From an uncultured bacterium (GTDB taxonomy: Bacteria; Patescibacteriota; Microgenomatia; Levybacterales; UBA12049), in contig CAWGXL010000008.1 of NCBI GenBank assembly GCA_963826535.1, forward strand, positions 2,679 through 66,678: 64,000 nt of DNA, written 5' to 3'. How positions within the stretch are numbered: position 1 is the stretch's first letter; every line of letters starts with the position of its first letter. Under the pieces are notes generated by a model, which saw nothing but the letters and a program-made list of their open reading frames with translations, searched no databases and was not told the origin of the DNA. Positions 1,118 through 58,159 of the stretch are shown in pieces. Position numbers and translations under genes: made by a program.

Positions 1118-1681
1118 TTGGAAAACATGGACGCACATATAGAATTTATAAATGAGTTATTTGATTATAAGAACTTCCTAAAATATAGCAATACTTTAAT
1201 CGAGACGGGTTGTGCATGGGGAGATGGAGTGCAACGGGCTTTAGATGCAGGATTTAAAAAAGTGATAAGCATTGAGGCCAGTAATAAGTATTTTATTCAT
1301 TCCAAATCGAGATTTAATTCTAATGTAAGTATTTTACTTGGCGAGTCTAAAAAAGTTTTGCCTAAAATACTAAAAGGGAAACCATTAGTATTTTTTTTGG
1401 ATGCTCACCCTTCCGCTACGGATAGTTATGGGTATACAGAATGGGCAGCTACACAAGCAAATATCCAGGACAATATTATTAAGGCGGAACTTGGAATAAT
1501 CTTAGCCGACTATAACAAGCATATAATTATAATTGATGATATGCAGGGCTTAGATGAGTTTTCGCAAAGGTATATTGATATGATTTTAAAGGTTAATTCT
1601 GATTATCAGTTTAAATTCTATGATGAAAATTTAAGCGGCAATAAGTTTTATAAATCTAAAATATTGGCAGCGATTACATAA
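1118..1681 (+). CDS. FkbM-like (Methyltransf_21) SAM-dependent methyltransferase
   Basis: LIETGCAWGDG ... KVISIEASNKYF fits the FkbM-family N-terminal pattern. Confidence 0.5.
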   Translation: MENMDAHIEFINELFDYKNFLKYSNTLIETGCAWGDGVQRALDAGFKKVISIEASNKYFIHSKSRFNSNVSILLGESKKVLPKILKGKPLVFFLDAHPSATDSYGYTEWAATQANIQDNIIKAELGIILADYNKHIIIIDDMQGLDEFSQRYIDMILKVNSDYQFKFYDENLSGNKFYKSKILAAIT

Positions 1682-1688
1682 ATAAAAA

Positions 1689-1711
1689 ACCGCCTTACCT
1701 TGGATAAGGCG
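1689..1711. terminator. perfect 8-bp stem-loop (ccgcctta / taaggcgg) after the methyltransferase gene, possible terminator
   Basis: Inverted repeat read directly; an A-tract lies upstream and there is no T-tract downstream, so the hairpin is bidirectional or weak. Confidence 0.35.
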
Positions 1712-1785
1712 GGACACGGCTATATTTCAACTTCCGTGATTTTAATGAATAGTAGATCCCTCGCCAAGATTTACAAATATAGTAA

Positions 1786-3192
1786 ATGAAATTATCTTTT
1801 AGCAAATTAGGGAACTACGGGCGTTTCGGGAACGGATTATTTCAAGTGGCAAGTGTTTTAGGAATGGCTACATACAAAGCCGAAGCCGTATTTCCCGAAT
1901 GGAACTATGAAAAATATTTCGTAAAACTTCTGCCTCATGGTGAACAAGTAAAAAACCAGGTAATAGAGAAGCACTTTCATTATCATGATTGGGAGCTTAC
2001 AGAGGATAGTGATTTACTTGGTTACATGCAATCAGAAAAATATTTTGCATGGATAGAAGATAAAATAAAAGAGCAATTTACCTTTAAACCGGAAGTGCTG
2101 CAATCTGTAAAAGATAAATTTCCAAACCTGTTTGATAAAGAAGTTATTTTAATACAGATCCGAAGGACTGATTATGTTGGTTGTCCTCACTACTGGCAGT
2201 TACCAGTAACATATTTTATCCGGGCTCTCATAGAATATTTTCCCAATTACCAGGATTATAATATTGTTTTTATTAGTGATGATATTGCTTATGCCAAAGT
2301 ACATTTCGAATGTTTACCTAATGTTACGTTTGCAGATATACCGGATTATGAACAGATGGCACTTGCTACACTTTGCACACATTTTATAATTGCAAATAGT
2401 TCCTTTGGATGGTGGGCAGCATGGTTAGGTGAAAAACCCAATTCTAAAGTAATACATTCAGGCAGACTTCATGCAGGCAAGCTCTTGGAAAAATCTAATG
2501 AACAGGATTATTACCCTGAAAGATGGCTGGAATTTAAACGGGAAGATTATAAAATTGATTTAAATGATGTCACATTTACTATCCCGGTTTTTTTTGATCA
2601 TTCAGACCGCAAGCAAAACTTAGATTTATCTGTGTGTATTTTACAAACAAACTTTGAAACTAATATTACTATAGGAGAACAGGGTGGGACTAAGTTTGAA
2701 TATATGAGCAAGTGGTTTAAATATATTCATTTTGATTTTCCATACTTTCATCGTACAAAGATGCTTAATGATATGGCTACTGCTGCAAATACGCCTTATT
2801 TAGCCAATTGGGACGCAGATGTTATAATACCACCTTTCCAGATTTATCTGACTGTAGAGAAGCTAAGAAAGGGCAAAGACATGGTATTCCCATATGATGG
2901 ACGTTTTGCAAGGTTACCTCGTAAGGAATGGTTTAAGCCTATTGAGAAAATTCTTGACATAGGCGCAATAGGTGATACAGAACCTAAAGGAAAAAGGGGT
3001 CGTCCTGTTCCCGAAGGTTCGGTAGGAGGCGCAGTATTTTTCAACAAAGAATCGTTCATTGATGGGGGCATGGAAAACGAAAATATGATAAGTTTTGGAC
3101 CTGAGGATGGGGAGCGCAATGACCGTTTTGCAATATTAGGTTTTGATAAAGACAGGGTGGAGGATGCCTCTATCATATTGATCATTGGGTAG
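1786..3192 (+). CDS. two-domain glycosyltransferase: N-terminal GT11 alpha-1,2-fucosyltransferase-like domain fused to a C-terminal GT-A/galactosyltransferase-like domain
   Basis: GT11 motifs GRFGNGLFQ, IQIRRTDY (HxRRGDY-like) and ANSSFGWWAAWL; the C-terminal half carries the acidic GPEDGERNDR motif. Confidence 0.6.
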   Translation: MKLSFSKLGNYGRFGNGLFQVASVLGMATYKAEAVFPEWNYEKYFVKLLPHGEQVKNQVIEKHFHYHDWELTEDSDLLGYMQSEKYFAWIEDKIKEQFTFKPEVLQSVKDKFPNLFDKEVILIQIRRTDYVGCPHYWQLPVTYFIRALIEYFPNYQDYNIVFISDDIAYAKVHFECLPNVTFADIPDYEQMALATLCTHFIIANSSFGWWAAWLGEKPNSKVIHSGRLHAGKLLEKSNEQDYYPERWLEFKREDYKIDLNDVTFTIPVFFDHSDRKQNLDLSVCILQTNFETNITIGEQGGTKFEYMSKWFKYIHFDFPYFHRTKMLNDMATAANTPYLANWDADVIIPPFQIYLTVEKLRKGKDMVFPYDGRFARLPRKEWFKPIEKILDIGAIGDTEPKGKRGRPVPEGSVGGAVFFNKESFIDGGMENENMISFGPEDGERNDRFAILGFDKDRVEDASIILIIG

Positions 3193-3260: not shown

Positions 3261-3971
3261 ATGACTTCTGATGAATTAAGACTTTATGTTGATACCTGGC
3301 ATTGGCGACACAAATACACGAGTAATTATTATAAGAGAATAGGATCCGGGAGTGTTAAAAGTGCCAGTGAAGTTTTCAAAGAGTTAAGAAAACATATTAG
3401 GTTTAAAACAATTATAGACATTGGTTGCGGTATAGGTGAGTGGAATGATGGCAATCCAAACTATTTTGGAGTTGATTATAATATACCAAGGAAAAGTTTA
3501 ATGATAGACACTAAAAATTATATAGATATTGATCTTGAAAAAGATGATGCTGTAAGAAATAAAATATTATGGGCAACAGGAAAAGAAAAATTTGATTTGT
3601 GTTTATGCCTGGAAGTCGCGGAACATATCAGCGAAGAAAGATCAGATATTTTAATTGAAATGTTGTGTAATTTATCGGATAAAGTTTTATTTGGTGCAGC
3701 AATACCAAATCAGGGAGGTACGGGTCATATTAATGAACAATGGCAGACATATTGGGCTGAAAAATTTGCATCTAATAAATTCTATCCTTATAAAACAGAT
3801 ATCAGAAAAGCGTTCTTTAATAATGAAAACGTAGAAATGTGGTATAAAAACAATATGATCTTATTTACTAAAAAAAAATTTAAAATAGATTACCAGTTAA
3901 ATTTTGTGCATCCTGAAATGTTTACTTCTTGTATTCAGCATTATAAGAATCAGTTAAAACAGGTAGTTTAA
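3261..3971 (+). CDS. class I SAM-dependent methyltransferase
   Basis: Motif I IIDIGCGIGEW; post-I acidic motif LCLEVAEHI. Confidence 0.55.
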   Translation: MTSDELRLYVDTWHWRHKYTSNYYKRIGSGSVKSASEVFKELRKHIRFKTIIDIGCGIGEWNDGNPNYFGVDYNIPRKSLMIDTKNYIDIDLEKDDAVRNKILWATGKEKFDLCLCLEVAEHISEERSDILIEMLCNLSDKVLFGAAIPNQGGTGHINEQWQTYWAEKFASNKFYPYKTDIRKAFFNNENVEMWYKNNMILFTKKKFKIDYQLNFVHPEMFTSCIQHYKNQLKQVV

Positions 3972-4326
3972 TTTCTAATTCTTTGCCTGTTAAAGCAAAG
4001 TAAAGGTTTTGTAGTTGATGTAGGTATTTAAGTTCAACCCCTTCCATTGAACCATTAAAACTAACTTTAAACCCGTTATCTGTTTTATCTAAGTCTATTT
4101 CATTATTACTAAAATCACATTGTAATCCTTCTGGTTTAAATCCGCATCCTTCTAATATTTCAGGTGTGAGTGGAATGGGATGAACGTGATCTTGAATAAA
4201 TTCATTAATTAAATAAAAAAAACCGTCTTTTACAGACTGTTTTGATATTTTATCAACCTTAATCCAATTATCATTTATAATTGTTGTAATCCAATTCCCT
4301 ATCCGTAATTCTTCTGCTTGTATCAT
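3922..4326 (-). CDS. hypothetical protein, member of a duplicated family (paralog at 7702-8094)
   Basis: Shares ELRIGN, HPIPLTPEILEGCGFK and YLHQLQNLYFALTGKELE with the 7702..8094 product. Confidence 0.5.
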   Translation of the reverse strand: MIQAEELRIGNWITTIINDNWIKVDKISKQSVKDGFFYLINEFIQDHVHPIPLTPEILEGCGFKPEGLQCDFSNNEIDLDKTDNGFKVSFNGSMEGVELKYLHQLQNLYFALTGKELEIKLPVLTDSYNAEYKK

Positions 4327-6625: not shown

Positions 6626-7147
6626 ATGGGATTCACAATAAATATTGACACAAATAAAGTTAATGTAGCTTTAAAAGGCATTGAGAATAAAGCCAAAACA
6701 TTTATTCAAAAAGAGTTAGAAACCTTTGCGCTCAATGTCGTTAATGATGCCAAAAGGCTGGCTCCTGTTGATGAAGGACACCTAAGAAATTCAATAAGTT
6801 TTAATTCAAAACCTCTGAAAGTTGATGTAGTTGTAGCGGCTGATTATGCCCCGTTTTTAGAATTTGGGACTAAGGCTTTTGCCGCTAAATATGTTTCAAG
6901 TTTGCCGGCAGAGTGGCAAACTTACGCAGCCTCATTTAAAAATAGGATGCCGGGAACTTATGATGATTTTATATTTAGATTAACTGGCTGGATTAAACGC
7001 AAAGGCATTGCAAAGGGAGATGATATAGATCAGATTGCTTATATCTTTGCCCGTAAGATTATGATTACGGGTATTAAACCTCAGCCATTTCTTTATCCAA
7101 GTTTTTCTAAGAACTTAATAAAATTAAAGCAAAGATTAAATGCGTGA
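6626..7147 (+). CDS. tail component, HK97 gp10 family
   Basis: VDEGHLRNSI motif (vDtGrLrnS signature). Confidence 0.55.
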   Translation: MGFTINIDTNKVNVALKGIENKAKTFIQKELETFALNVVNDAKRLAPVDEGHLRNSISFNSKPLKVDVVVAADYAPFLEFGTKAFAAKYVSSLPAEWQTYAASFKNRMPGTYDDFIFRLTGWIKRKGIAKGDDIDQIAYIFARKIMITGIKPQPFLYPSFSKNLIKLKQRLNA

Positions 7148-7296
7148 TGTTAATTTTGTTCTTACTTTTTCTGTCATAGCTTTCTCAATAGGCCACCCAT
7201 AAAATTTTCTCGCATGAAACGTGCCGCTTTTTATATTATTTAGTTTTAAAGTATAAAGATAATTTTAGATAACTCATATCTGATTAGTTTTACTCC

Positions 7297-7734
7297 ATGC
7301 GCTCAGTTAATTTCCCTTTAAGAAAAAAGTACTATTCTTTACTTACCGGCATTACTTATAATGATGTATTAGTGCCCTCATTTTATCAAAAAGCTCCAAA
7401 TGATTTGGTGACCGAAAATTATATAGTATTTGGAGAAATAAGTAGTAACGATACTTCAAGTAAGTACAAGGCAGAAACCGAAACTTCAATTAGATTAACA
7501 ATACATACTTATAAAAGTATTTATAATTCCGGCGAATCTGCGGATTCAATCGCTAATGAAATATTTGCAAGAGTTTATCCGAATGGCCAGGTTAATCATG
7601 ACCTTTCGGAAGATAGCTTGCAAGTTGTAAATACAAGGTTAAGTTCTGATTATACACAGAATTATAATATAAATAACGAAAGAGAATATATTGACCGACA
7701 CTTAACATTTACTCACATTATTTTCCATCAATAA
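7297..7734 (+). CDS. hypothetical protein (possibly tail terminator-like)
   Basis: Sits between the gp10-like and major tail genes. Confidence 0.35.
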   Translation: MRSVNFPLRKKYYSLLTGITYNDVLVPSFYQKAPNDLVTENYIVFGEISSNDTSSKYKAETETSIRLTIHTYKSIYNSGESADSIANEIFARVYPNGQVNHDLSEDSLQVVNTRLSSDYTQNYNINNEREYIDRHLTFTHIIFHQ

Positions 7735-8094
7735 GTTTACTTCTAATTCTTTGCCGATTAAAGCAAAGTATAAGTTTTGTAATTGGTGCAAATATGTAAT
7801 ATGAATAATCCTATCATGGGTTCCTTCATAATCTATATGAACGTAATAAAAATCAGTATCCAACGAAAGATTTGGGATGGAATAAATACCAAAATCTTTA
7901 TTACACTTAAACCCACAACTTTCAAGTATTTCAGGTGTGAGTGGAATGGGTTTTATATGATCAAATACTTCAATATCTCTTTTTCCTGATTTAAATTCAA
8001 TAGATATACCATTCTCAAAAACCTCTTTTATAGTACAACTATTAAATAGTGCAAATACACAATTTCCAATCCTTAATTCATTTGCTTTTATCAT
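7702..8094 (-). CDS. hypothetical protein, paralog of 3922-4326
   Basis: Same conserved blocks as 3922..4326, encoded antisense to the structural operon. Confidence 0.5.
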   Translation of the reverse strand: MIKANELRIGNCVFALFNSCTIKEVFENGISIEFKSGKRDIEVFDHIKPIPLTPEILESCGFKCNKDFGIYSIPNLSLDTDFYYVHIDYEGTHDRIIHITYLHQLQNLYFALIGKELEVNLLMENNVSKC

Positions 8095-21206: not shown

Positions 21207-23648
21207 ATGGTTTTGACGAAAAAAACAATATTAGGTTTTGCATGGTTATTCATAATAATAACTCTTATACTCTTTGCTATACCTGCAAGAGCAATTGATT
21301 ATTACATTAGTTCTTCGGGAAGCGATATCAACAACGGTACTTCAACATCAACACCATGGGCTTCCATAGCGAAACTAAATAGCTTTTTTTCAAGTCTTCA
21401 ACCAGGTGACAACGTTTACTTCAAAAGAGGTGAAACATTCTACGGAACAATAACGGTAAATAAATCCGGTACTTCAAGTGCGCCTATTACTATTGGCGCT
21501 TATAGTACAGGGAACAGACCTCTCATTTCATCACTGATAACCGTATCAGGGTGGACAGCAGACCCAACATATACAGGTGTATATAGGAGTGCCATTAACT
21601 CAGCATTACCTTCTACTACAGTTAATATAGTATTAAGGAATGGACTGCAGGAGCCTATAGGCAGGTTCCCAAACCGTGACTATCCAACACCTCTTACAAA
21701 AGGATGGTTATCGTTAACCGGCCCAATAAACGGCTATACATCTATTACTCATTCACCAAGTGCCTCCGTTGCAGACTGGACGGGTGCAGAGCTTGTATTA
21801 AAAAGGGTGGCATGGATCATAGATAGAAATCCTATTACATCTCATTCGGGTAATATTATTACTTATTCTACAGCTCATTATTCAACCTCTAAATACGCAC
21901 CACTCTCTGGCTGGGGCTACTTTTTTCAATCTCATCCGCGAACCCTTGATCAATTAGGAGAATGGTATTATGATAAAGCTACAAAGCAGTTAAGTATGTA
22001 TTTCGGTAGCGGTGGAGTAGGCTCAAACGTTGTTCAGGTAGCAGCACTTCAACAGGTGATTTACAATGCCGGTTTTGATTATATAACATTCCAGGATTTA
22101 AACTTAGAAGCAGCTAATGACCAGGTAATTTATTTGTTTGGCACTTCAGGTAACAGGATTATAAATAATAAGATCATAGGTTGTAATGTACAATATGGTG
22201 GAGCTTATGGAATAAGAGCACCGGGTACTACAGGGCTTCTAATAGAAAATTGTTCTGTTAACAATCACAATAATAGTGGTATTGAACTTTCACCACAGGC
22301 AGCACAAGGGAGTATCAACTCTATAATAAGAAATTGTGAAGTAAGAGACATTCAACAAATAGTTGGTATGGGATTAAGTGGTGATGGACAAGGTAGGTCA
22401 ATTGGTAACTCAGACGGTGGACTCATTGAATATTGTACAATTATTAATTCCGGTTATATAGGTGTGCAAATTGGTGGCAACAATTCAATAGTTGATTATA
22501 ATTTAATTGATAGTATCGGTAATACAAAAGATGATGGTGGAGCAATTTATGAATCATCCAGTACATCAACACTAAACACAGGTAGAAAAGTGCGAAACAA
22601 TATCATATTACATGGTATTGGTGCCCCGGATGGGACGCTTAATAGTGCCGGCGGATTACAGGTAAACAAAAGCGTCAAAGGTATTTATATGGATGACTAT
22701 GCGAGTGGTACAGAGATAAGCGGTAATACTGTTGCATACTATCAATATGGGCTATTCTCACATAGCGGAAGAAATAACACCTGGTATAATAACACACTTT
22801 ACGGTAATGGTACAGGTAGCCCGGAGGGAGCCGGTTTATATTTTCAGCAAAATACAAATGATGTATCAAGGGGTAATGTCTTTAAGAAAAACATTGTATT
22901 TGCAACTACAAATTCAAGTGGTCAGGAAAATATACTTACTATGTTCACGGAATTTAACGATATAAATCTATTGGGTATTATAGACAGTAATTATTATGTC
23001 AGGCCACTTGATAGCAACCTGATTATTAAGATCACCCGTACGGGTTCGGCTATTGCTTATTATAATTTAACTCAGTGGAGAAACGCTACCATATATGATA
23101 ATAATACTTCCAAATCACCTCTATCATATCCGAGGCTTACAGCGCCTTCAACAATATTTAGATTTGAATATAATGCAACTAATTCACCTGTAACAATAAG
23201 CGGCTTTGGTGGATTCTATTGGTTGGATGGAAAAGGTACCCAATATTCACAGTCATTACTTTTACAACCTTATTCTTCAGTCGCTCTAATGAAAGGCGCA
23301 GTAGATGGCAGTAGTTCTAATATTGCGCCAACAGTAAGTATAATAAGCCCTTCCAGCGGTGCAGGTTATACGGCTCCTGGTACTGTGGTTATAGATGTTA
23401 CCGCAGGAGATGCAGATGGAACAATAGACCACATTGATTTTTATAGCGGAGGTACATTAATTGGCACTGATAATACTTCACCATACTCTTTTACGTGGAC
23501 ACCTGTTGGAGCGGGTAATTATTCATTAACAGCAGTAGCAATCGATAATGATGGCGGTATCACTACATCATCTTCAAAATCAATTACAGTAGCTAATCTT
23601 TCAAATCCGGTAATAGAAATTAAGATAAGAAAAAAACTTAAAGTATGA
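21207..23648 (+). CDS. right-handed beta-helix (pectate-lyase fold) protein with a C-terminal Ig-like domain; tailspike / polysaccharide depolymerase candidate
   Basis: N-terminal YYISSSGSD...TPWASIAKLNSFFSSLQPGDNVYFKRGETFYG, repeated ...IGGNN...NxI turns, and a C-terminal Ig-like segment. Confidence 0.6.
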   Translation: MVLTKKTILGFAWLFIIITLILFAIPARAIDYYISSSGSDINNGTSTSTPWASIAKLNSFFSSLQPGDNVYFKRGETFYGTITVNKSGTSSAPITIGAYSTGNRPLISSLITVSGWTADPTYTGVYRSAINSALPSTTVNIVLRNGLQEPIGRFPNRDYPTPLTKGWLSLTGPINGYTSITHSPSASVADWTGAELVLKRVAWIIDRNPITSHSGNIITYSTAHYSTSKYAPLSGWGYFFQSHPRTLDQLGEWYYDKATKQLSMYFGSGGVGSNVVQVAALQQVIYNAGFDYITFQDLNLEAANDQVIYLFGTSGNRIINNKIIGCNVQYGGAYGIRAPGTTGLLIENCSVNNHNNSGIELSPQAAQGSINSIIRNCEVRDIQQIVGMGLSGDGQGRSIGNSDGGLIEYCTIINSGYIGVQIGGNNSIVDYNLIDSIGNTKDDGGAIYESSSTSTLNTGRKVRNNIILHGIGAPDGTLNSAGGLQVNKSVKGIYMDDYASGTEISGNTVAYYQYGLFSHSGRNNTWYNNTLYGNGTGSPEGAGLYFQQNTNDVSRGNVFKKNIVFATTNSSGQENILTMFTEFNDINLLGIIDSNYYVRPLDSNLIIKITRTGSAIAYYNLTQWRNATIYDNNTSKSPLSYPRLTAPSTIFRFEYNATNSPVTISGFGGFYWLDGKGTQYSQSLLLQPYSSVALMKGAVDGSSSNIAPTVSIISPSSGAGYTAPGTVVIDVTAGDADGTIDHIDFYSGGTLIGTDNTSPYSFTWTPVGAGNYSLTAVAIDNDGGITTSSSKSITVANLSNPVIEIKIRKKLKV

Positions 23649-26491
23649 AATACCTGTTAACGATATTAATATTTATTTCATGCAATCAGTCTGAACCAAA
23701 AGTCACTACAAGAAGTACAACAGCATCAACAACAGGCAGAACTTTTTACATTTCTGAAAGTGGTAATGATGGAGGAAGCGGTACCATTAATTCACCATGG
23801 AGAACGATAAATAAACTAAACTCTTATTTCGGTAGCCTTCAGGCCGGTGATGTAGTATTATTTAGAAGAGGTGAAACATTTTACGGAACAATCACAGTAA
23901 ACAAATCGGGCACTTCAGGCAATCCTATTGTTATTAGCGATTACGGTGAAGGCGCAAAGCCTGTTATAACTTCCCTTGTTACACTTTCAGGATGGAATAA
24001 TGCAGGCAATGGTGTCTATGAAAGTGCCTCTAATTCTTCGTTTGATGCAGCCGTAAATGTGGTCCTTTTGAATGGTGTTATAAAAGGTATTGGCCGTTAT
24101 CCAAATGACACTTATTTGTATCTGGAAAGTCATGTAAGCAATACTTCCATAACAGATAATCAATTACCTTCTTCTCCAAATTGGACGGGAGCCGACGTTA
24201 TCATAAGAACTTCACGATGGACACTTGACAAAGGGAAAATAACAAATCATTCAGGGACCCGGATTACTTATACTCCCACACCTAACACTTACACACCGGT
24301 AAATAATTATGGGTACTTTATTCAGAATAATATTAAGACACTTGATCAGTTAGGGGAGTGGTATTACAATCCTTCAACGAAAAGGATTTATATGTATTTC
24401 GGGAGTAATAATCCGTCATCCTATAATGTGCAGGCCGCTTCATCTGATAACCTTGTTTACTCATCAAACAGAAGCTATGTGGGATTTGAAAATATAGAGT
24501 TCAAAGGAGCTAACGGTAACAATATAAATATTGTTGGTGGGGTAAATAATTTTATGACTAATTGTGATGTTGACTTTTCAGGCAAAGACGGACTAAACGT
24601 AACAGGCAGTTATTTTAAGTTAGAAAATTCAACGGTAATTAACTCGCTTAACAATGGTGTTCATGTTGGTAACTGCTATGCTTCACAAGTAAGAAATAAC
24701 CTGATAAAAAATAATTATTTCATTGCAGGTATGGGCGGAAGCGGAAATGGGCAAGGAGCAGGTGTAAGAAATAGTACAAACGGACTTGTAGAATATAATC
24801 AAATTATCAATTCAGGTTATATAGGTGTGCAACTTGGCGGCAATAATGCAATAGTTAAAAACAATCTTATTGACAGTTTTTGCTTTGTCAAAGATGATGG
24901 TGCAGCCGTATATACTTCTAATGGTGAGAATAATACATACACAGGAAGAAAGATAATAGGCAACATTATTTTAAATGCTATAGGTGCGCCAGCTGGCACT
25001 CCTTCAACAGCATATTCAGCGGAGGGTATTTACATGGATGATAATGTTAACGGGGTTGAAATTTCCGGTAACACTATTGCTAATTGTAACAGGGGTATAT
25101 TTCTTCATAATACCAAAAGTATAGGTGTAAAAGATAATACTGTTTTTTCAAATATAAATGGGCAGCTGTTTATGAAACATGATGCTTTAGGGGTTGCCCT
25201 CAGAGATCATATAATTACAAACAATATATTTTTTGCAAAGCAGTTGACGCAAAATGTAGCATCATTTATAACGAAGGATAATGATATCGCTCACATCGGA
25301 GATTTAGATAATAATTACTATGTACGTCCAATAAATGATAGGGTTACTTTTTATTCAACAATTTACTATTTAGCATCGGCGCAAGTTGTCAATTATATGG
25401 ATTTGGAAGCATGGAAAAGTAAGTACCCACATGATGAAGGTAGCAACATTTCCAGCAAATCAATTTCACCTTACAAACTTATCGGTTTGATAGGATCAAG
25501 CAAGTTTGCAAATAGCAGTTTCAATTCAAACGTATCAGGTGTTTTTGCAAATAAATGTGCTGTCTCATGGAGTAATTCAAATATGGATGGAGGCCATTTA
25601 AAAGTAGTTCCATCCGGTGAAGGATCAACAATTGTTATGAGTATTGGTGGGCTTACTTCCGGTAAAAGGTATATATTAAGGTATAGTGCGAAAAGCACAG
25701 CTACAATGAGCATAGCAGCCAATTTACGGGCAGCTAATTATATTCCTAACACCTTGCTTATGAGACGCACAATTTCTCCTAACAGATCTGAAAATGAGAT
25801 TTTATTTCAACCGTTTACAAATGAATCAAGTGCTGCACTTGTATTCACGGCAGCAGAAAGAGCAACCTATTATTTAGACAACATTCAACTCTATGAAGCA
25901 AACGCAACAGTAACCGACGTAGAAGATTCTATACGGTTTGAATACAATGCATCAACTAATACAAAATTGATTACACTGGATGGAAAATATACCGACGTTA
26001 AAAATAATATTTATGATCAGGGGATAACATTACAACCTTATTCATCAGCTGTACTAATAAAAGTAGGTGCGGGTATTATTAATCCTCCTATAGAATATGA
26101 ATCAGGAATATTAGAATCTGAAAATGCTGTTTTATATAATGCTGTTGTTGCATCAAATCATGCAGGCTTTACAGGAACAGGCTTTGCGGATTACATAAAT
26201 ACTACAGGTGATTTCGTAGAGTTCACGCTAAACAAAAAAAATACCGGATCGGCTTCACTTAGTTTTCGGTATGCTAATGGCGGATCTGCTAATCGTCCGT
26301 TAAGATTGGAAATTAATGGTATGATTAAAGCCGATGGACTTGCTTTTCCGCCGACAGGAGGTTGGGCTAAATGGTCAACAACAATACTGCCGGCAAACCT
26401 CAATGCAGGTGATAATAAAATAAGATTAACGGCTATCGGTAGCAGCGCGGGGAATATAGATCATTTGGCATGGGAGGACTTAAAGCCATGA
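23645..26491 (+). CDS. paralogous beta-helix protein with a C-terminal CBM6/CBM35-like carbohydrate-binding module (lipoprotein-type signal)
   Basis: N-terminal 60 aa nearly identical in pattern to the 21207 product; C-terminal GFTGTGFADY...SFRYANGGS...RPLRLEINGM...GGWAKW...DHLAW. Confidence 0.6.
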   Translation: MKYLLTILIFISCNQSEPKVTTRSTTASTTGRTFYISESGNDGGSGTINSPWRTINKLNSYFGSLQAGDVVLFRRGETFYGTITVNKSGTSGNPIVISDYGEGAKPVITSLVTLSGWNNAGNGVYESASNSSFDAAVNVVLLNGVIKGIGRYPNDTYLYLESHVSNTSITDNQLPSSPNWTGADVIIRTSRWTLDKGKITNHSGTRITYTPTPNTYTPVNNYGYFIQNNIKTLDQLGEWYYNPSTKRIYMYFGSNNPSSYNVQAASSDNLVYSSNRSYVGFENIEFKGANGNNINIVGGVNNFMTNCDVDFSGKDGLNVTGSYFKLENSTVINSLNNGVHVGNCYASQVRNNLIKNNYFIAGMGGSGNGQGAGVRNSTNGLVEYNQIINSGYIGVQLGGNNAIVKNNLIDSFCFVKDDGAAVYTSNGENNTYTGRKIIGNIILNAIGAPAGTPSTAYSAEGIYMDDNVNGVEISGNTIANCNRGIFLHNTKSIGVKDNTVFSNINGQLFMKHDALGVALRDHIITNNIFFAKQLTQNVASFITKDNDIAHIGDLDNNYYVRPINDRVTFYSTIYYLASAQVVNYMDLEAWKSKYPHDEGSNISSKSISPYKLIGLIGSSKFANSSFNSNVSGVFANKCAVSWSNSNMDGGHLKVVPSGEGSTIVMSIGGLTSGKRYILRYSAKSTATMSIAANLRAANYIPNTLLMRRTISPNRSENEILFQPFTNESSAALVFTAAERATYYLDNIQLYEANATVTDVEDSIRFEYNASTNTKLITLDGKYTDVKNNIYDQGITLQPYSSAVLIKVGAGIINPPIEYESGILESENAVLYNAVVASNHAGFTGTGFADYINTTGDFVEFTLNKKNTGSASLSFRYANGGSANRPLRLEINGMIKADGLAFPPTGGWAKWSTTILPANLNAGDNKIRLTAIGSSAGNIDHLAWEDLKP

Positions 26492-30700: not shown

Positions 30701-30982
30701 TTGCAATATTCAAGTTTACACCTTATCTTTGATCTATTAATAACAATTAAAATAAATAAAATGAACAATAATTTAATTAACGAAGAAGACAAAAATTTAT
30801 CCTCTGATGGTAAGCTAAGGGCATCATTGTATACACATGCTGTTGATCTTAATCTCAAAAAAATAGAAGAACTGCAGGTATTATTTGATAATGAAACCGA
30901 TATTCATGAAAAAGCTAAATTATCGTATCTCATAGCACGCAGACAAAAACTGCATTATGATAACTTCAATATGAGCGAATAA
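30701..30982 (+). CDS. hypothetical protein
   Basis: ORF in the AT-rich inter-module region. Confidence 0.3.
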   Translation: MQYSSLHLIFDLLITIKINKMNNNLINEEDKNLSSDGKLRASLYTHAVDLNLKKIEELQVLFDNETDIHEKAKLSYLIARRQKLHYDNFNMSE

Positions 30983-30987
30983 TGATT

Positions 30988-31149
30988 ATGAAAAAACAAA
31001 AGTCTCATGGGGGTGCTCGTCCAGGCGCAGGACGTAATTTAAAATACGGGGAACCTACAGAGCGCATATTTTTTACTGTACCCGAATCAAAAAAAGAAAT
31101 AATCGTAGAACAGGTCAAAAAAATTATTCAGCGTATAACAAAAACGTAA
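30988..31149 (+). CDS. small basic protein (53 aa) with a GGARPGAGR motif; possible excisionase/DNA-binding candidate next to attP
   Basis: Translated by hand as MKKQKSHGGARPGAGRNLKYGEPTERIFFTVPE...; below the ORF-track length cut-off. Confidence 0.25.
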   Translation: MKKQKSHGGARPGAGRNLKYGEPTERIFFTVPESKKEIIVEQVKKIIQRITKT

Positions 31150-31356
31150 AATTCATACCTTTACTTTGCAAAGCAGACTTCATACAGGTCATTACAGCAA
31201 ACCAGGCCGCCCTTTTCAGGATGGCCTTTCTTTTTATAAACACAAAAGCCAGTGGTCATAACTCCACCGGCTCCCAATTTCCATTTTCAATTACAAATTA
31301 CCTTAAATTACATAAAACCCTATTAAATTACAGGACAAACATAATATATATTTTAG

Positions 31357-31383
31357 TAATGTTTTAGTAATTTCTAAAATTTA
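31357..31383. repeat. TTTTAGTAA direct repeats (two copies), candidate integrase arm-type sites
   Basis: ttttagtaatgttttagtaatttc, 13 bp upstream of the tRNA-like core. Confidence 0.4.
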
Positions 31384-31395
31384 TTGATTTAATAC

Positions 31396-31434
31396 GGGAA
31401 AACGATAGTGGTTCGAATCCGCTCGGGACCTCTT
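31396..31434 (+). other. attachment-site core: 3-prime fragment of a tRNA gene (T-arm plus acceptor 3-prime strand), no 5-prime half present
   Basis: agtgg-TTCGAAT-ccgct T-arm with the GGTTCGAATCC box, then cgggacc; no complementary ggtcccg within 100 nt upstream. Confidence 0.45.
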
Positions 31435-31530
31435 TATTTAATACGTAAAATTCATAAAGCTCTAATTATTAGAGCTTTTTAGTGTAAAATAGTGTAATAT
31501 TTTGCGAAAAAGTGGTTTAAAAGGGTACAT

Positions 31531-31557
31531 TTGTTTTAGTAAAGTTTTAGTCATTGA
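31531..31557. repeat. second pair of TTTTAGTAA-like repeats overlapping the integrase promoter region
   Basis: ttgttttagtaaagttttagtcattg; a TTG...TAcaTTTG Bacteroidetes-type promoter motif at 31502-31533 is also visible. Confidence 0.35.
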
Positions 31558-32714
31558 CAAAATACACCCTTAAATTACTGCTTTACACCTATCAGGTAAA
31601 CACACAAGGGCTATTCCCTATCTATATAAGAACAACAATAAACCGCAAAACTTCCTATAAAGCTACAGGGCATTTTGTAAGCAAAAAAATGTGGGATGAA
31701 AAGAATAGCCAGGTTAAAGCCGGTCATCCGAATGCTGAGTTAATTAATGCTCACCTTTCATTTACTAAGACAGAATGGGAGAAAAAAATTGTTACTACTC
31801 AACTTAAGGGAACTGATTTAACAGCAGCAGAATTGAAAGAAAGTTTTATAAGTGATAAGCATAATATTTTTCATTATGTTGAGGGATTTATTAAAAGATT
31901 AAAAGGTAAAAAATCTAAAGCCACTTTAGAAAACTATAAAAAACATTTGCTGAAGCTTGAGACTTTTAATAAGAGCCGGGCACTTCAATTTGAAAGTATA
32001 GACGCAAATTTTTTGCATAAGTATGAAACCTGGTTAAGAGAAAACATAAACTTCAGAAAAGCAGATAGTACAAATTATATCCATGCTATTTGGAAAACTT
32101 TTAAGACCTGGTTTAATGCTGCAAAGAAAGAAGGTATAATAAGTAACTACCCTTTTGACCAGTATGAGAATCCTGTTTATGTTTCACCGGATAAGGACTA
32201 TTTAACAAACGAAGAATTAAAATTGTTTGAAGATTTTGCGGATGAATCTTTGGATCTTATTTTAAAAGAGAGTGCAGTTTATTTTTTATTCGGTTGCTAT
32301 TCAGGATTAAGAATTTCAGATTGGTATCAGTTCAAATTTGATAAGCATGTAAAAGGAAATAAAATAAGATTGCGTCCGGCAAAGACTAAACACAAATGGG
32401 TAGAGATGATAATAAGCAAACCTTTGCAAAGAAATCTTTTAAGGATGCAGCAAATACCAATTCAATTAAAGGAGCAGACTATAAATGAAAAACTAAAGAT
32501 CATAGCCGCTAAAATAGGTATCAGCAAGCATTTAACTACGCATTCATCTCGTCACTCGTTCGGGATAACCATTTGTCTTGCTAACGGTCTTTCAAGTGAA
32601 ACAACAGCAGAATTAATGGGAATAACATTAGATACTTTTGTAAAAAATTACTCTCAAATAACTCAATCAAAAATAGATCATGAAACAAGTAAGGCCTGGG
32701 AAAAATTAAATTGA
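31554..32714 (+). CDS. int: tyrosine integrase (site-specific recombinase)
   Basis: N-terminal arm-binding-like LFPIYIRTTINRKTSY, catalytic HSSRHSF and LMGITLDTFVKNY (Tyr); a TTG start is inferred. Confidence 0.75.
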   Translation: MTKYTLKLLLYTYQVNTQGLFPIYIRTTINRKTSYKATGHFVSKKMWDEKNSQVKAGHPNAELINAHLSFTKTEWEKKIVTTQLKGTDLTAAELKESFISDKHNIFHYVEGFIKRLKGKKSKATLENYKKHLLKLETFNKSRALQFESIDANFLHKYETWLRENINFRKADSTNYIHAIWKTFKTWFNAAKKEGIISNYPFDQYENPVYVSPDKDYLTNEELKLFEDFADESLDLILKESAVYFLFGCYSGLRISDWYQFKFDKHVKGNKIRLRPAKTKHKWVEMIISKPLQRNLLRMQQIPIQLKEQTINEKLKIIAAKIGISKHLTTHSSRHSFGITICLANGLSSETTAELMGITLDTFVKNYSQITQSKIDHETSKAWEKLN

Positions 32715-33340
32715 GCTTCTATTACAATAGATAATTCCTTGCTACCTTTGATATAAGTATGCCTACCATTAATTCTTAAATATGATTCCCATACTTTTTT
32801 GTTTTTATTCCAATAAATACCTTTAATCCCACTTCTTCTTTCTGCACATGGCGAAGACCTATCATTAGATAACATTTCTTCCAATTCATCAATACTGTAG
32901 TTTAATTCATTCAATAAAGCATATTCAGATAATTCCTTAGCTTTTTTATTATAGGCGTATGCAGCGGCTATTTCGCTTTTATAAAACCCCAAATCGTGAT
33001 CTTCATGATTTATTCGGCACCTACTATTATACAGCCCTAATTTTTTTTTAAACTGTACACCCTTATAAGTATTGTTTGTGTTTCTTCTTTTGTGTTGATT
33101 ATGTACATTTTGCTCTTTATTTACAATCCTTATATTATATTTTTGATTGTTCAATTTATTATGATCCCTGTGATCTACTAATTGATCCGGCAAAGGCTTT
33201 AAAATCATTCTATGCATCTTTACTCTATCTTCATTTATAGCATATCCATTGGATAAATACCATTTGTGCTTAGATAAATAAGCAAAATCTTCATCATCAA
33301 CTAAAGATGTTTCTCCTTTTGATAGTAATATTATTTTCAT
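32678..33340 (-). CDS. HNH endonuclease with AP2 DNA-binding domains (homing-endonuclease-like)
   Basis: VDHRDHNKLNNQKYNIR (HNH); YKGVQFKKKLGLYNSRCR...EIAAAYAYNKKAKEL and IKGIYWNKNKKVWESY (AP2). Confidence 0.6.
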   Translation of the reverse strand: MKIILLSKGETSLVDDEDFAYLSKHKWYLSNGYAINEDRVKMHRMILKPLPDQLVDHRDHNKLNNQKYNIRIVNKEQNVHNQHKRRNTNNTYKGVQFKKKLGLYNSRCRINHEDHDLGFYKSEIAAAYAYNKKAKELSEYALLNELNYSIDELEEMLSNDRSSPCAERRSGIKGIYWNKNKKVWESYLRINGRHTYIKGSKELSIVIEAQFNFSQALLVS

Positions 33341-33400
33341 GAAATAAAGTTACGAAAAGGTTACGTAACTTCACAGTATCTTTCATGTAAATAAATAGTT

Positions 33401-33583
33401 ATGTCTTATATTAGTGCAACGATGCCAAAAAGCCCGGAAACAAAAAGGATTGAAGTACATTTAATGCCTTCAATTGTTAAGGAGTTGCAACGTCTTGCAG
33501 AGTTAGAAAACAGAAGCCTTAAAAATTATATTGAAACGCTTTTACAAAAGCATTTAGAAGATCAAAATAAAAAAACACGTTAA
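33401..33583 (+). CDS. small ribbon-helix-helix-like protein
   Basis: RIEVHLMPSIVKELQRLAELENRSLKNYIETLL beta-alpha-alpha pattern. Confidence 0.3.
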   Translation: MSYISATMPKSPETKRIEVHLMPSIVKELQRLAELENRSLKNYIETLLQKHLEDQNKKTR

Positions 33584-33595
33584 GAATTACAGCCA

Positions 33596-33661
33596 AGTAA
33601 CACAAAGTAAGATTGATAAAGAAACCGCTGAAGCTTGGGAAGTATTGACTTAAAGAGGTGT
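33596..33661 (+). pseudogene. vestigial integrase C-terminus (21 codons, then stop)
   Basis: Translates to YSQVTQSKIDKETAEAWEVLT, against NYSQITQSKIDHETSKAWEKLN at the end of the intact int; about 60 percent DNA identity. Confidence 0.45.
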
Positions 33662-33850
33662 ACAATGATAACTTAAATCATTGCCTTGTGCATCCTGAAA
33701 TCTTGCATTTTTTGGATCATCGCCACACCATTTTTTAGGCTCTGGATTTTGCCCATTGAACGTACCAAAAGTACAATACCAGCAATCTTTATTTTTCTTA
33801 CAGCCAAAAATGTTGCAGAGAAAAATAGTATTAATAATGCTTTTTTCATA

Positions 33851-34084
33851 TTAGCGGTATAGGTTGAATTTTTTAACCAAGACATTTGTTGCGCTATGAA
33901 TTTCTTCATTAGTAACGCCTTGCTTTTCTGCAATTTTTGTTAGCAGCCCTATGATTGCATTATTCTGTTTTGTGTGTTTATCTACATCAAAAATCCATCT
34001 GTACAAAAAATAAGTTATGGCAATAATAGCAGCAAGAATCATTAAAAATACTATAACATAGAATGGTGTAATTTCTTCTGGCAT
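33851..34084 (-). CDS. small membrane protein
   Basis: TM segment FYVIVFLMILAAIIAITYFLY. Confidence 0.3.
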   Translation of the reverse strand: MPEEITPFYVIVFLMILAAIIAITYFLYRWIFDVDKHTKQNNAIIGLLTKIAEKQGVTNEEIHSATNVLVKKFNLYR

Positions 34085-34175
34085 GAGTTTTAATTTTAAG
34101 AAGTAATTATATATATTAGAAAGTATTTCTTTTGTTAATGTTCAAATAAATTCAACTGCCTCGATCCAAACAAGT

Positions 34176-34610
34176 TTATAACTTTGCACGTTTGATTGGT
34201 TTTGATTGCTCTGAGGGGTGGCCATTTTTTGATGTGTTAGTTATGTTTGTTTGCAATCGTTCTTTTTCTGCATAGTCTTTAATCATTTGTTGTTGGCTAT
34301 TTATTGTATCTGCATTTTTAATAACCGCACTCAACAATTCATAAAAAGTAAGATCATTTATTTCCAATGCTATTTTACTTTTTTGTAATGACGGCTTTTG
34401 ATCATCCCATATTGATTTTTTCAACAAATCCCTATAAATAATTTTCAGTTTTTTAATTACTGCTTCGTGCCCATCCTTTTTAGATATTGCCTGCGTTAAA
34501 GTTTGCGGTCTAAGCCCTGCATCTACAGAAAGCTCAGACTGCGTCTCAAATTTTTTTGCGATTCGTAAAAAATCAACCAGTTCTTTTAATATTTCTTTAG
34601 AAGTTTTCAA
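34176..34610 (-). CDS. putative phage repressor (HTH), divergent from the cro-like gene
   Basis: FETQSELSVDAGLRPQTLTQAISKK HTH-like segment; position and orientation fit a CI-like repressor. Confidence 0.4.
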   Translation of the reverse strand: MKTSKEILKELVDFLRIAKKFETQSELSVDAGLRPQTLTQAISKKDGHEAVIKKLKIIYRDLLKKSIWDDQKPSLQKSKIALEINDLTFYELLSAVIKNADTINSQQQMIKDYAEKERLQTNITNTSKNGHPSEQSKPIKRAKL

Positions 34611-56420: not shown

Positions 56421-56789
56421 TAAAGGTTTTTCGTTATCCATTAGATTGTTTCAAGTTGGTAGAATAGTATCCTCTTGTAATACCATATTTAAGAAATTCT
56501 TTCGTAGTTAGATTCCAATTTTCCTTTTGGTAGTTATAAGATAATTATCACAACCTTCAATCATTTTCATTTTTATGAATTTCCATAAAGATATAATTAA
56601 ATTTTAATTACCTACCTAATATTGTTAGTGAATTTTTAACTAAAGATGTTGGTAGGAAGAAAAAGGTTAAAAATGGATACGAAGTAAAAATCATGAATGT
56701 TAAATCAAAGAAGATAAAGAAAAAGAAAGATGGAAAGGAAATCTATAAACTTTGAATTAAAGGACATTGACAAAGGCAAACGTATGGCA

Positions 56790-58159
56790 GTGATCGCCGG
56801 CTCGGTGGGCGCCTCGGTGGTCGGTTCGGTTGTCGGTTCCGTGGTCGGCGGCGTCGTGGCCGGCCTGGTCGTGGCAGGCGCGGAGGTCGGCGGCCGAGCC
56901 GTCGGCGTGCGGCTGGGCTGCAGCGACTGGCCGCTCGGCCGGGCGGGCTCGGTGTTCTCGTCCGACGAGTCCTGCAGGCCGGGCACACGCCGGGCGCCGA
57001 GCTGTCGGTGACCCGCGCCGACGGCGTGGTGACCGGTTGCTCCGCGGTGCCGCTCCGGTCCGGCTGGAAGAATAGCGCAGGGCCAGCAGGCCGCGGCCAG
57101 ACCGAGGAAGATCACGGTCAGCAGCACGGCCAGCTCGGCGCCGGTGCGCTTACGCTGGCCCGGCGCCTGCGGCACGTACGGCAGGTCGTGCGGCGCCGGT
57201 GCGGGTCCAGGTCGGCGGCGGCCGGGCCCAGTGGCATGGTGAGCGCGGTGCCGGTCATCGCCGCGCTGGTCAGCGCGGTGCCGGTCTGCGTGGTGCCGGT
57301 GCTGGTCAGCGACTGGTAGTCCATCGGCGTGCTGGCGGCGAGCGCGGCCTCGGCGAACTCGGCGGCGCTGGCGAAGCGGTCCTCCGGGTGTTTCGCCATG
57401 GCGCGGCTGATCAGCTCGCGGACCGCCACCGGCACCTCGGCGGGCAGCGGCTCCGGATCCTCGTCCAGGTGGCGCAGCGCCACCGGAGGGCGGTGTCACC
57501 GTCGAACGGGCGGATGCCCGGAGAGGCAGTGGTATGCCACCGCGCCCAGCGCGTAGATGTCCGTCGCCGGCGTGACGTTGCCCTTGGCCACCTGCTCCGG
57601 TGCCATGTAGAGGGCGGTGCCGACGATCGAGTTGACCCCGGTCAGGCTGGTCACCGCGTTGGACCGGGCCATGCCGAAGTCGACGAGGATGGACCGCGCC
57701 GGTCGGGCTTCACGATCAGGTTGCCGGGCTTGACGTCGCGGTGCACGGTGCCGGTCTGGTGCGCGGCGTGCAGCGCGTCCGCGGTCTGGGACACGATCGA
57801 CATGGTCTCCGCGACGGTCAGCCGGCCGACCTCCTTGAGGCGGGTGGACAGCGGCTCGCCCTCCACGTAGCGCCATCACCAGGTAGGCGCACTGATCCTC
57901 GTCGGCCGAGTCGCGGCGCTCGGCGTAGTCGTAGACCTCGACCACGCCCGGGTGCCGGAACGCGGCCATCATCCGGGCCTCCGCCGTAGAACCGGGCGGC
58001 GAACTCCGGGTCGCGCATCATCGACGGACGCAGCACCTTGACCGCGACGACGCGGTTCAGCACGACGTCGGTGCCGCGCCACACGTCACCCATGCCGCCC
58101 GTGGCAATGCGCTCGTCCAACCGGTAACGGTTGTCGAGGAGATGACCGGCATCCAGCAC
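56790..58159 (-). pseudogene. PknB-like Ser/Thr protein kinase (kinase, TM and Pro/Thr-rich tail), broken by frameshifts and truncated at the GC junction
   Basis: Across at least four frames: GGMGDVWRG...VAVKVL, HRDVKPGN, DFGMARS...APE; TM LAVLLTVIFLGLAAA; PTTEPTTEPTTEAPTEP runs into the AT-rich DNA with no stop. Confidence 0.55.

Follow-up and report, generated by a model that had tools for sequence, protein, structure and literature searches.

A putative homing-endonuclease cassette between two diverged C-terminal ends of a phage tyrosine integrase gene

The 64,000-nt stretch of DNA analysed here, which we call the window and whose numbering we use throughout, contains the 3' coding end of a phage tyrosine integrase gene (int) of the Bacteroidota type in two diverged copies. 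The last 24 codons of the intact gene (tail A) and a displaced version of the same end (tail B) enclose a cassette of some 864-865 bp, at positions 32715-33578, in which an HNH-AP2 nuclease gene and a gene for a small ribbon-helix-helix (RHH) protein diverge from a common control region (Table 1). We propose, with a probability of about 0.65, that this cassette is a free-standing homing-endonuclease element that invades the 3' ends of phage integrase genes and provides a replacement tail by which the invaded gene is kept intact. Here, we describe the anatomy of the locus, the folds and families of its proteins, the recurrence of the arrangement at other recombinase genes and the allelic nature of the two tails, and from these we infer how cleavage, the position of the cut, homing and repression by the RHH protein may fit together. 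Comparison contigs carry L numbers and homologous proteins P numbers.

Two integrase C-termini and the genes between them

Tails A and B stop at the same aligned position. A first-pass annotation of this DNA had reported a second integrase tail with 15 of 21 residues identical to the first; this count is correct for the YSQ...LT stretch, and the three preceding codons raise it to 18 of 24. The fragment was rightly recognised, and only its placement at 33596-33661 was off, being about 8 nt too far to the right: the YSQ...LT stretch occupies 33588..33650. A hidden Markov model (HMM) of the last 30 residues of 92 integrase homologues, from which the window protein was excluded, was run on 2904 six-frame fragments of the window. 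It recovered the tail of int itself (E=7e-18) and tail B (E=2e-13), and the next best fragment in the window scored E=0.12. With a tblastx value of E=2e-9 for the two 2.5-kb flanks, the similarity of the tails is above chance.

Tail B also lies outside any longer open reading frame (ORF) on its strand. An in-frame stop codon (33555-33557) is found eight codons 5' of it, ATG, GTG and TTG are absent in between, and the RHH ORF runs in another frame and ends within the first two codons of tail B. At 24 codons, tail B is short enough to invite the view that it is a chance similarity or a part of a longer real gene, but the gap between its HMM score and the next best, the aligned stops, and the absence of a start codon and of an enclosing same-strand ORF make this view next to impossible. 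Since both of these objections fail, the original observation stands. Relative to the RHH gene, tail B is in the +1 frame and directly follows seven A's (33568-33583), and a frameshift there would fuse the RHH protein to the integrase tail; this arrangement is not conserved in contigs L029 or L129, described below, and is probably meaningless.

The integrase matches the Pfam families Arm-DNA-bind_5 (1.4e-14), Phage_int_SAM_5 (3.8e-15) and Phage_integrase (3.4e-8), the last of these matches extending to profile position 169 of 172. There are 98 full-length homologues, the best of them 69% identical, and the protein aligns with 387-aa homologues at 100% coverage. The few homologues that bear an organism name belong to Chitinophagia-type bacteria. 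The conserved tyrosine position (NY motif) sits in tail A.

The nuclease matches PHROG family phrog_99, HNH endonuclease (2.4e-25). A profile of its family (32 members), compared with the PDB, found I-HmuI (1u3e, 4.9e-7) and, over two stretches, the AP2 protein WRI1 (7wq5, 1.3e-7), and in the family alignment H57, N65, N69, N78 and N81 are invariant and H80 nearly so. An AlphaFold2 (AF2) model of the protein (pLDDT 93.7) contains two AP2 units, each of three strands plus a helix, and its best match in Foldseek is the tandem AP2-DNA complex 7wq5 (probability 1.0). The last 12 codons of the gene are antisense to tail A, in a 37-nt convergent overlap (32678-32714); the model ends in a complete terminal helix despite this int-antisense 3' end. 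About 50 relatives, 43-60% identical, occur in metagenomes. Cultured phages yielded only matches of 35-42% identity, without an integrase context, and a search of the genome collection with the HNH alignment returned only distant HNH genes, at no more than 42%.

The RHH protein matches an Arc-like repressor family in PHROG (8.5e-6). It is 60% identical over its full length to the RHH protein of L029 and 46% identical to that of L124, and it is clearly related, on reading of the sequences, to that of L129; a scan of IMG/VR with the RHH alignment gave no match. The PHROG matches, the profile comparisons and the AF2 model agree with the earlier description of a minus-strand HNH-AP2 gene and a small RHH gene between the two tails.

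The palindrome in the spacer between the two genes occurs once in the window, where none is expected by chance. An identical palindrome is present at the equivalent place in L029 and L030 and beside the RHH homologue of L124, and L129 has a version with one mismatch. When IMG/VR was scanned for the palindrome, eight matches were obtained, of which seven are chance occurrences within ORFs and one, that of L124, is real. In the window it overlaps a candidate TAnnTTTG-like -7 box, of the Bacteroidota type, for the HNH gene, as read from the sequence. The palindrome is probably the operator of the RHH protein, which would repress the HNH gene through it. L124 (IMGVR_UViG_3300018719_000012, 6725-7368) carries the RHH homologue with the palindrome upstream, followed by a gene for a 138-aa GIY-YIG protein whose start overlaps the preceding stop. 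Because the RHH-operator module is paired there with a GIY-YIG nuclease, it is not tied to the HNH protein and looks like a portable regulator of homing endonucleases. Intrinsic terminators and sigma-70 promoters around the cassette are no more frequent than expected by chance, in a scan that does not cover Bacteroidota promoters.

Two other identities were considered for the gene pair and rejected. A type II toxin-antitoxin pair, with a RelB-like antitoxin and a nuclease toxin, does not agree with genes that are divergent rather than arranged as a co-directional operon, nor with a score of 21 bits against the cut-off of 50 for the RelB-like family of NCBIfam. As for a known defence system, PADLOC returned only a generic 'homing endonuclease' match.

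Recurrence at recombinase 3' ends

We examined 15 genomic contexts of the HNH subfamily, the window included. The gene adjoins the 3' end of a tyrosine recombinase gene in eight of them, and these recombinases are of unrelated types. L029 and L030 contain, in order, a gene for a 355-aa integrase only 30% identical to that of the window, a minus-strand RHH gene, the palindrome, a plus-strand HNH-AP2 gene, and a 49-codon copy of the C-terminus of the integrase. Window positions 33537..32903 align with L029 positions 2087..2709 at 68% nt identity over 645 nt, a stretch that covers the RHH gene, the palindrome and the HNH gene; compared with the window, the L029 cassette is inverted relative to int. 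The displaced tail of L029, RHTAAMLLADAGVSQEVVAKILGHKDLRSTSVYYRISNIRVDMELKKRK, and its working tail, RHTFSMTLANHGISQEVAAKLLGHTDLRSTSTYYKISNSRIDNEIKKLK, both given up to their stop codons, are 68% identical in amino acids (E=3e-19). The cassette ORFs, the HNH and RHH ORFs of the window among them, end within int-derived sequence, and the junctions have no spare DNA.

The other recombinase-adjacent loci vary this pattern. L129, which has the closest HNH relative (60%), contains a third type of integrase whose gene ends against the stop of a minus-strand RHH gene, followed by the one-mismatch palindrome, a plus-strand HNH gene and the end of the contig. L034 encodes a 196-aa catalytic-domain recombinase (Pfam 3.4e-23) that ends in REYLGLTKQVIDNVYVNL and a stop; the HNH gene starts 2 nt further on, there is no RHH gene, and a second tail of 19 codons, REYLGLTKQVINNVYANL and a stop, identical at 17 of 19 residues, overlaps the 3' end of the HNH gene. 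The contig of L036 begins at the HNH gene, whose stop abuts a 54-residue C-terminal fragment of a Phage_integrase domain (Pfam positions 132-169 of 172, 1.3e-10). Among crAss-like phages (L133, with a CrAss_Ring_1 neighbour, and L134-139), a gene for a 262-265-aa XerC/D-like recombinase is overlapped by an HNH-AP2 gene or lies 5 nt ahead of it, and the HNH gene of L134-139 was found in 38 blocks of the metagenome collection. Finally, the HNH gene of L140 is convergent with int across a 5-nt gap. No tail remnant is detectable in L133, L134-139 or L140.

All four remnants (window, L029, L034 and L036) contain the catalytic-tyrosine codon. In the window and L034 the remnant starts just before this codon; in L029 and L036 it starts at the R-H of the HxxR box. 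Because the displaced part includes the catalytic-tyrosine codon, an insertion without a replacement tail would inactivate the recombinase. A neighbour-joining tree places the three RHH-linked, int-adjacent HNH proteins in one clade and the recombinase-adjacent HNH proteins as a whole in at least four clades. As the arrangement is found again at integrases of unrelated types, the family probably targets integrase genes repeatedly.

Controls were drawn from 73 Bacteroidota-type phage int loci that lack both the HNH and the RHH gene, in each of which the last 50 residues of the integrase were compared with 3 kb on either side. None of the 73 has a same-strand tail remnant; the sole match lies on the opposite strand, 2.5 kb off, and is probably a second recombinase. 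Remnants accompany three of six loci with the HNH gene and none of the 73 without it (Fisher p=2.5e-4). In L007, which is syntenic with the window and distant from it, int is directly followed by convergent genes and the cassette is absent; the genes 3' of tail B show no similarity to those 3' of int in L007.

The same comparisons bear on the possibility that the HNH-AP2 and RHH proteins serve the integration module as accessory factors or regulators, such as a directionality or regulatory pair, that selection keeps them beside recombinase genes, and that the remnants are incidental. RHH proteins are common regulators, and in the crAss-like phages the HNH gene, which shares the strand of the recombinase gene, overlaps its stop or lies 5 nt beyond it, suggesting co-transcription. 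A partnership of this kind is nevertheless improbable, as the HNH gene converges on int in the window and L140 and runs in the direction of the recombinase gene elsewhere, close HNH relatives reside within an intein, behind a terminase gene and at further sites among early genes, the RHH gene and palindrome are paired with a GIY-YIG nuclease in L124, and L007 and the 73 control loci dispense with both genes.

The contexts away from recombinases are as follows, and those of L038, L033 and L130 are of the classic kind for homing endonucleases. In L038 (1500-2930), an HNH-AP2 protein (46%) is contained in a putative intein (CFVPGS...VHN/S, the slash marking its end) of a PolIII-alpha-like gene, both of these identified by eye from the translation; in L033 the HNH gene follows a putative large terminase gene, likewise identified by eye. 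Other copies stand beside a helicase gene (L037), in early-gene regions (L031, L142) and among tandem nuclease genes (L035). In L130, and also in L131, an HNH-AP2 gene is flanked by a 35-nt direct repeat, 97% identical (3450-3490 and 4218-4252), that corresponds to the first 12 codons of the downstream gene. This repeat shows that duplicated gene ends flank the HNH family at a non-integrase site too.

Allelic tails and routes to the present arrangement

The annotation had read the locus as a scar left by a mobile insertion or by replacement of int, and this is supported by the diverged tails, the discrete and recurring cassette, the related HNH genes at recombinase ends and the remnant-free controls. 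The tails of the window are 67% identical in nucleotides. Their silent sites are saturated with differences (proportion of silent differences, pS, 0.82; of non-silent differences, pN, 0.23), and 75% of residues are kept. Each of them has 71% nucleotide identity with the integrase tail found in L008, an unrelated contig. Since they resemble each other no more than either resembles L008, and since residues are kept across saturated silent sites, the two tails are different alleles of one integrase clade rather than a local duplicate. The other tail pairs are similar in this respect, with pS 0.69 and pN 0.26 in L029 and pS of about 1 and pN 0.09 in L034. In L029, tail A matches P0152 at 46 of 49 residues and tail B matches P0188 at 41 of 49, and the two tails match each other at 33 of 49.

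These values bear directly on the view that the 3' end of int was duplicated locally, in tandem or as a long duplication of the target site, and that tail B then decayed in place. The direct-repeat geometry without spare DNA at the junctions does resemble a target duplication, and the repeat around the related HNH gene in L130 offers a case of this form. However, neutral drift to silent-site saturation would have cost tail B its residues, frame and stop, which disfavours decay in place; in the window, silent sites are saturated and 75% of residues and the frame are nonetheless retained. Furthermore, in the window and in L029 tails A and B each have closer relatives than one another, and in the window it is tail B, rather than the working tail, that lies closer to the consensus of the family. 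We therefore consider a local duplication very improbable as an account of the present tails; a duplication that dates from the first formation of the element, which then homed into other alleles, could still be accommodated. Transposon-style target-site duplication was rejected on the length (57-150 nt), identity (65-70%) and saturated silent sites of the repeats.

Against the tails of all 15 closest integrases, tail B scores at least as well as tail A. Its conserved residues, frame and stop and its close fit to the family tails indicate that until recently tail B was part of an integrase gene that worked. In the window, tail B fits the 15 nearest integrases slightly better than tail A does, a small difference, and lies 20 nt from the end of the next listed convergent ORF; this hints that tail B may be native and that tail A may have arrived with the cassette. 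We also considered whether the silently recoded serine codons of tail A (TCN versus AGY) are a signature of immunity and rejected this, as other members of the family use both codon types.

Under the homing interpretation, the nuclease would cut a cassette-free int allele in the conserved 3' stretch that encodes the catalytic-tyrosine region. The end of the int body would then invade a cassette-bearing donor genome for repair of the break, and repair on this side would copy the donor's tail A, its stop codon and the cassette, while the other end of the break would rejoin through, or at, the recipient's own tail. The expected outcome is an int body followed by tail A, the cassette and, last, the orphaned tail B. 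Tail A would keep the integrase complete where the catalytic tyrosine would otherwise be lost, and tail B would be the left-over end of another int allele, which may act as a right-hand homology arm in later transfers. Because the DNA 3' of int differs between phages, tail B would supply right-hand homology that is otherwise missing. A conversion tract might also span the whole of int, in which case integrase modules would be swapped between phages. The RHH protein presumably binds the palindrome and holds expression of the nuclease low.

Several observations weigh against this interpretation or narrow it. The occurrence of the cassette in both orientations, with exact junctions and without terminal repeats, is not predicted by plain homing, and a search for terminal inverted repeats, by which the cassette might invert or transpose, found none. 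Neither tail of the window is identifiable as foreign. In L029 the working tail follows the int body: P0152, whose body is 89-90% identical, agrees with tail A at 46 of 49 residues and with tail B at 34 of 49. The orphan tail B of L029 is discordant, its best match being P0188 (41 of 49), whose body is only 59% identical. With tail A concordant and tail B discordant with the int body, the simple version in which tail A is foreign fails in L029; either the whole integrase would have entered with the cassette, or the contig of P0152 would itself have been invaded. Of the six HNH genes beside a recombinase gene that have sufficient flanking sequence, three are free of remnants. The presence of the subfamily at non-recombinase sites means that its specificity for int is not exclusive. 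In Pfam, the proteins of the cassette remain below the curated cut-offs (HNH_3, 1.9e-4, 21.4 versus 24.8 bits; AP2, 0.019; RHH_1, 0.003, 17.8 versus 20.5 bits).

L034 presents a further feature that does not fit. A third copy of the recombinase tail, GLTQQTINNVYANL and a stop (2876-2926, plus strand), lies about 480 nt upstream of the recombinase gene. It is closer to the displaced than to the working tail and is followed by an ORF that starts like an HNH gene (MKIKLTK versus MKTITLTK). The contig also has a LAGLIDADG-like ORF (1679-2302, minus strand; Pfam 0.004, below the cut-off). The third tail may represent an older junction in a hot spot for homing endonucleases.

The hallmark of homing is presence/absence polymorphism between near-identical genomes. 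No close empty-site relative of the window phage was found in INPHARED or IMG/VR, the closest integrase being 69% identical; the comparison of related phages with and without the segment, which the annotation had put forward, extends to the syntenic but distant L007, which lacks the cassette. The DNA of 31300-34200 had no match among 50,697 phage records. Protein-guided scans of IMG/VR gave no match to the window integrase or to a 144-aa neighbour and a best match of 61% to a 148-aa neighbour; a scan with the L029 integrase alone gave none, and one with an alignment of its family gave only relatives of at most 34% identity, which were used as controls.

These points bring forward the replacement of int modules by illegitimate recombination, in which a foreign block of int, tail A and the HNH and RHH genes would have taken the place of most of a resident int, of which the last 24 codons remained, the nuclease being passive. 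The int regions of temperate phages are mosaic, the discordant orphan tail and the concordant working tail of L029 are what replacement of a whole int predicts, and no empty-site allele was found that would show the cassette moving on its own. Passive replacement leaves unexplained, however, why, in three recombinase families that are independent of one another, the same nuclease family stands exactly between the int stop and a remnant, why the cassette occurs in two orientations without spare DNA, and why remnants are found in 0 of 73 controls. We consider it unlikely. Of the two versions in the annotation, landing of the cassette in an existing int and exchange of the whole int, neither can be separated from the other in the window, and in L029 the discordant displaced tail favours whole-int exchange.

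Setting of the locus and comparison with known systems

The locus lies in the low-G+C part of the window. From position 1 to about 56750, G+C is 31-41%, and phage structural, lysis and early genes are found there. At about 56750 (56700-56850), G+C rises from 0.29 to 0.78 within some 100 nt, and the last 7 kb have 70-76% G+C. Given this abrupt jump, we take the window to span a junction of two unrelated records, with the phage contig ending at about 56750.

Table 1. Features of the integrase locus, in window coordinates
Feature	Position	Strand	Remarks
tRNA 3'-end-like 25-mer (T-arm and acceptor 3' strand), AGTGGTTCGAATCCGCTCGGGACCT	31407..31431	+	read from sequence
Tyrosine integrase (int), Bacteroidota type, 386 aa, intact	31554..32714	+	Pfam domains
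Tail A, last 24 codons of int and TGA, working C-terminus, VKNYSQITQSKIDHETSKAWEKLN	32640..32714	+	
HNH-AP2 gene, 220 aa, HNH nuclease then two AP2 domains	32678..33340	-	
Cassette: HNH (-), divergent control region, RHH (+), about 864-865 bp	32715..33578		between int stop and tail B
Palindrome, AAGTTACG-N9-CGTAACTT, 25 nt	33347..33371		in the 60-nt HNH/RHH spacer
RHH (Arc-like) gene, 60 aa	33401..33583	+	
Tail B, displaced int C-terminus, VKNYSQVTQSKIDKETAEAWEVLT and TAA (33651-33653)	33579..33653	+	
Next listed convergent ORF after tail B	33673..33933		20-nt gap; about the expected place for an int 3' end

To the right of tail B are small convergent genes and then early genes running rightward. 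The tRNA-like 25-mer lies 120 nt 5' of int and is probably the core of attP, judged by its letters and position. ARAGORN found no complete tRNA in the window, and Rfam gave no match to the 25-mer, a piece too short for either program. Phage genes flank the attP-like site on both sides, in agreement with the excised form of the phage, and an attP core at this place would mean that the phage is in that form. Just 5' of this site, a 55-aa ORF (30982-31149, plus strand) has the motif GxRxxAxRxLKYGEPTExIxFxxPxSxK, which is also present in the C-terminal part of the GIY-YIG nuclease of L124 (6725-7141, minus strand; 18 of 29 residues identical, pairwise E=5e-10). The ORF belongs to no Pfam or PHROG family; it may encode a small DNA-binding module common to homing endonucleases.

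Two other observations concern distant parts of the phage. The paralogous ORFs 3922-4326 (134 aa) and 7702-8094 (130 aa), both on the minus strand inside the plus-strand late-gene block, are 41% identical (E=8e-26), with DNA patches of 80-86% identity. Neither has a Pfam family, and they may be moron-like or mobile genes. The large neighbouring plus-strand genes 21207-23648 and 23645-26491 share long segments of 40-66% amino acid identity and a 132-nt stretch of 75% nt identity, and are probably duplicated tail-fibre or beta-helix-type genes.

Free-standing homing endonucleases that spread by intronless homing are known from the seg and mob genes of phage T4. Such nucleases are stand-alone, sporadic genes located between conserved genes or at their ends and at recombination boundaries, as in the loci described here, and they are presumed to spread through the repair of double-strand breaks, during which the markers beside them are co-converted. 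The mobA/gene 60 cassette of T4 combines a homing endonuclease with a sequence that keeps the invaded gene functional by translational bypass. That cassette and the one described here both pair a nuclease with a rescue sequence, which in the phage integrase genes is a duplicate coding end. Integrative elements in the 3' ends of tRNA or protein genes bring a replacement end, and the old end stays as a repeat. There, too, the target gene remains intact by virtue of an end that arrives with the element; unlike the cassette, these elements use site-specific recombination and short, near-identical att repeats, whereas the int tails are 65-70% identical and the cassette has no recombinase of its own.

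PMC10448857 describes the 'IPA-HNH' and T5orf172 genes of phage ICP1 at boundaries of genetic exchange, together with an HNH plus AP2 architecture, and cites Magnani et al. 2004 for the HNH-AP2 endonuclease class. By profile matches, the window nuclease resembles this class and I-HmuI (1u3e) in having an N-terminal HNH domain followed by one or more AP2 domains; it differs from the HNH proteins of cultured phages in its low identity to them (35-42%) and has two AP2 domains. Our searches of the ICP1 and T5orf172 literature found no duplicated and displaced end of a neighbouring gene, no recurrent integrase neighbour and no linked RHH gene with an operator. Full-text searches of the literature likewise returned no report of a homing endonuclease that targets integrase genes, or that is accompanied by displaced gene ends in phages.

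Integrase genes form one of the most mosaic junctions in the genomes of temperate phages, and to our knowledge the cause of this mosaicism is mostly unexplained. If the homing interpretation is correct, a nuclease family that targets the catalytic end of int would provide a testable mechanism for the swapping of integrases and the change of integration sites, and the RHH-operator-nuclease unit would exemplify, in simple form, a homing endonuclease accompanied by a repressor of its own.

In fungal mitochondria, mobile endonuclease ORFs (mORFs) have been described in atp6 of Allomyces macrogynus and in atp6, atp9, cox2 and nad3 of Glomus (PMC3630166). In an mORF, a replacement C-terminus upstream keeps the gene whole, the nuclease gene comes next, and the old end is displaced downstream and is not translated; the duplicated ends have a DNA identity of 64-81% and encode nearly the same protein sequence (PMC3630166). 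The window, L029 and L034 similarly have an endonuclease gene at the 3' coding end of a host gene and a displaced, untranslated end downstream, and their two ends also differ mostly at silent sites, with 65-70% nt identity in the phage cases. Unlike in the mORFs, the host gene is a phage tyrosine integrase and the nuclease is HNH-AP2 rather than LAGLIDADG or GIY-YIG. Moreover, the HNH gene of the window is neither fused in frame nor co-transcribed with its host gene, being separate, on the opposite strand and under its own divergent control region. The cassette further differs in that it has its own RHH regulator and palindrome, is found in both orientations, and may have received either of its two tails from outside. 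The homing-endonuclease type itself is known; what appears new here is the carry-over of a C-terminus on phage integrase genes and a cassette with its own presumed repressor. A broader proposal, to which we would give somewhat less than even odds, is that the RHH protein, the operator and HNH-AP2 constitute a self-regulated homing lineage specialised on the catalytic-tyrosine 3' end of integrase genes, where it would persist through a duplicate coding tail that it brings in or leaves behind. By cutting and converting int alleles, this lineage would drive the exchange of int modules, and with them of attachment-site specificity, among temperate Bacteroidota and crAss-like phages, and it would give bacteria and phages their first counterpart of the mobile ORFs with a carried-over C-terminus in fungal mitochondria. 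In the literature we found the carried-over gene end described only for fungal mitochondria; if the reading of the cassette as a homing element is true, this strategy would extend from fungal mitochondria to phages.

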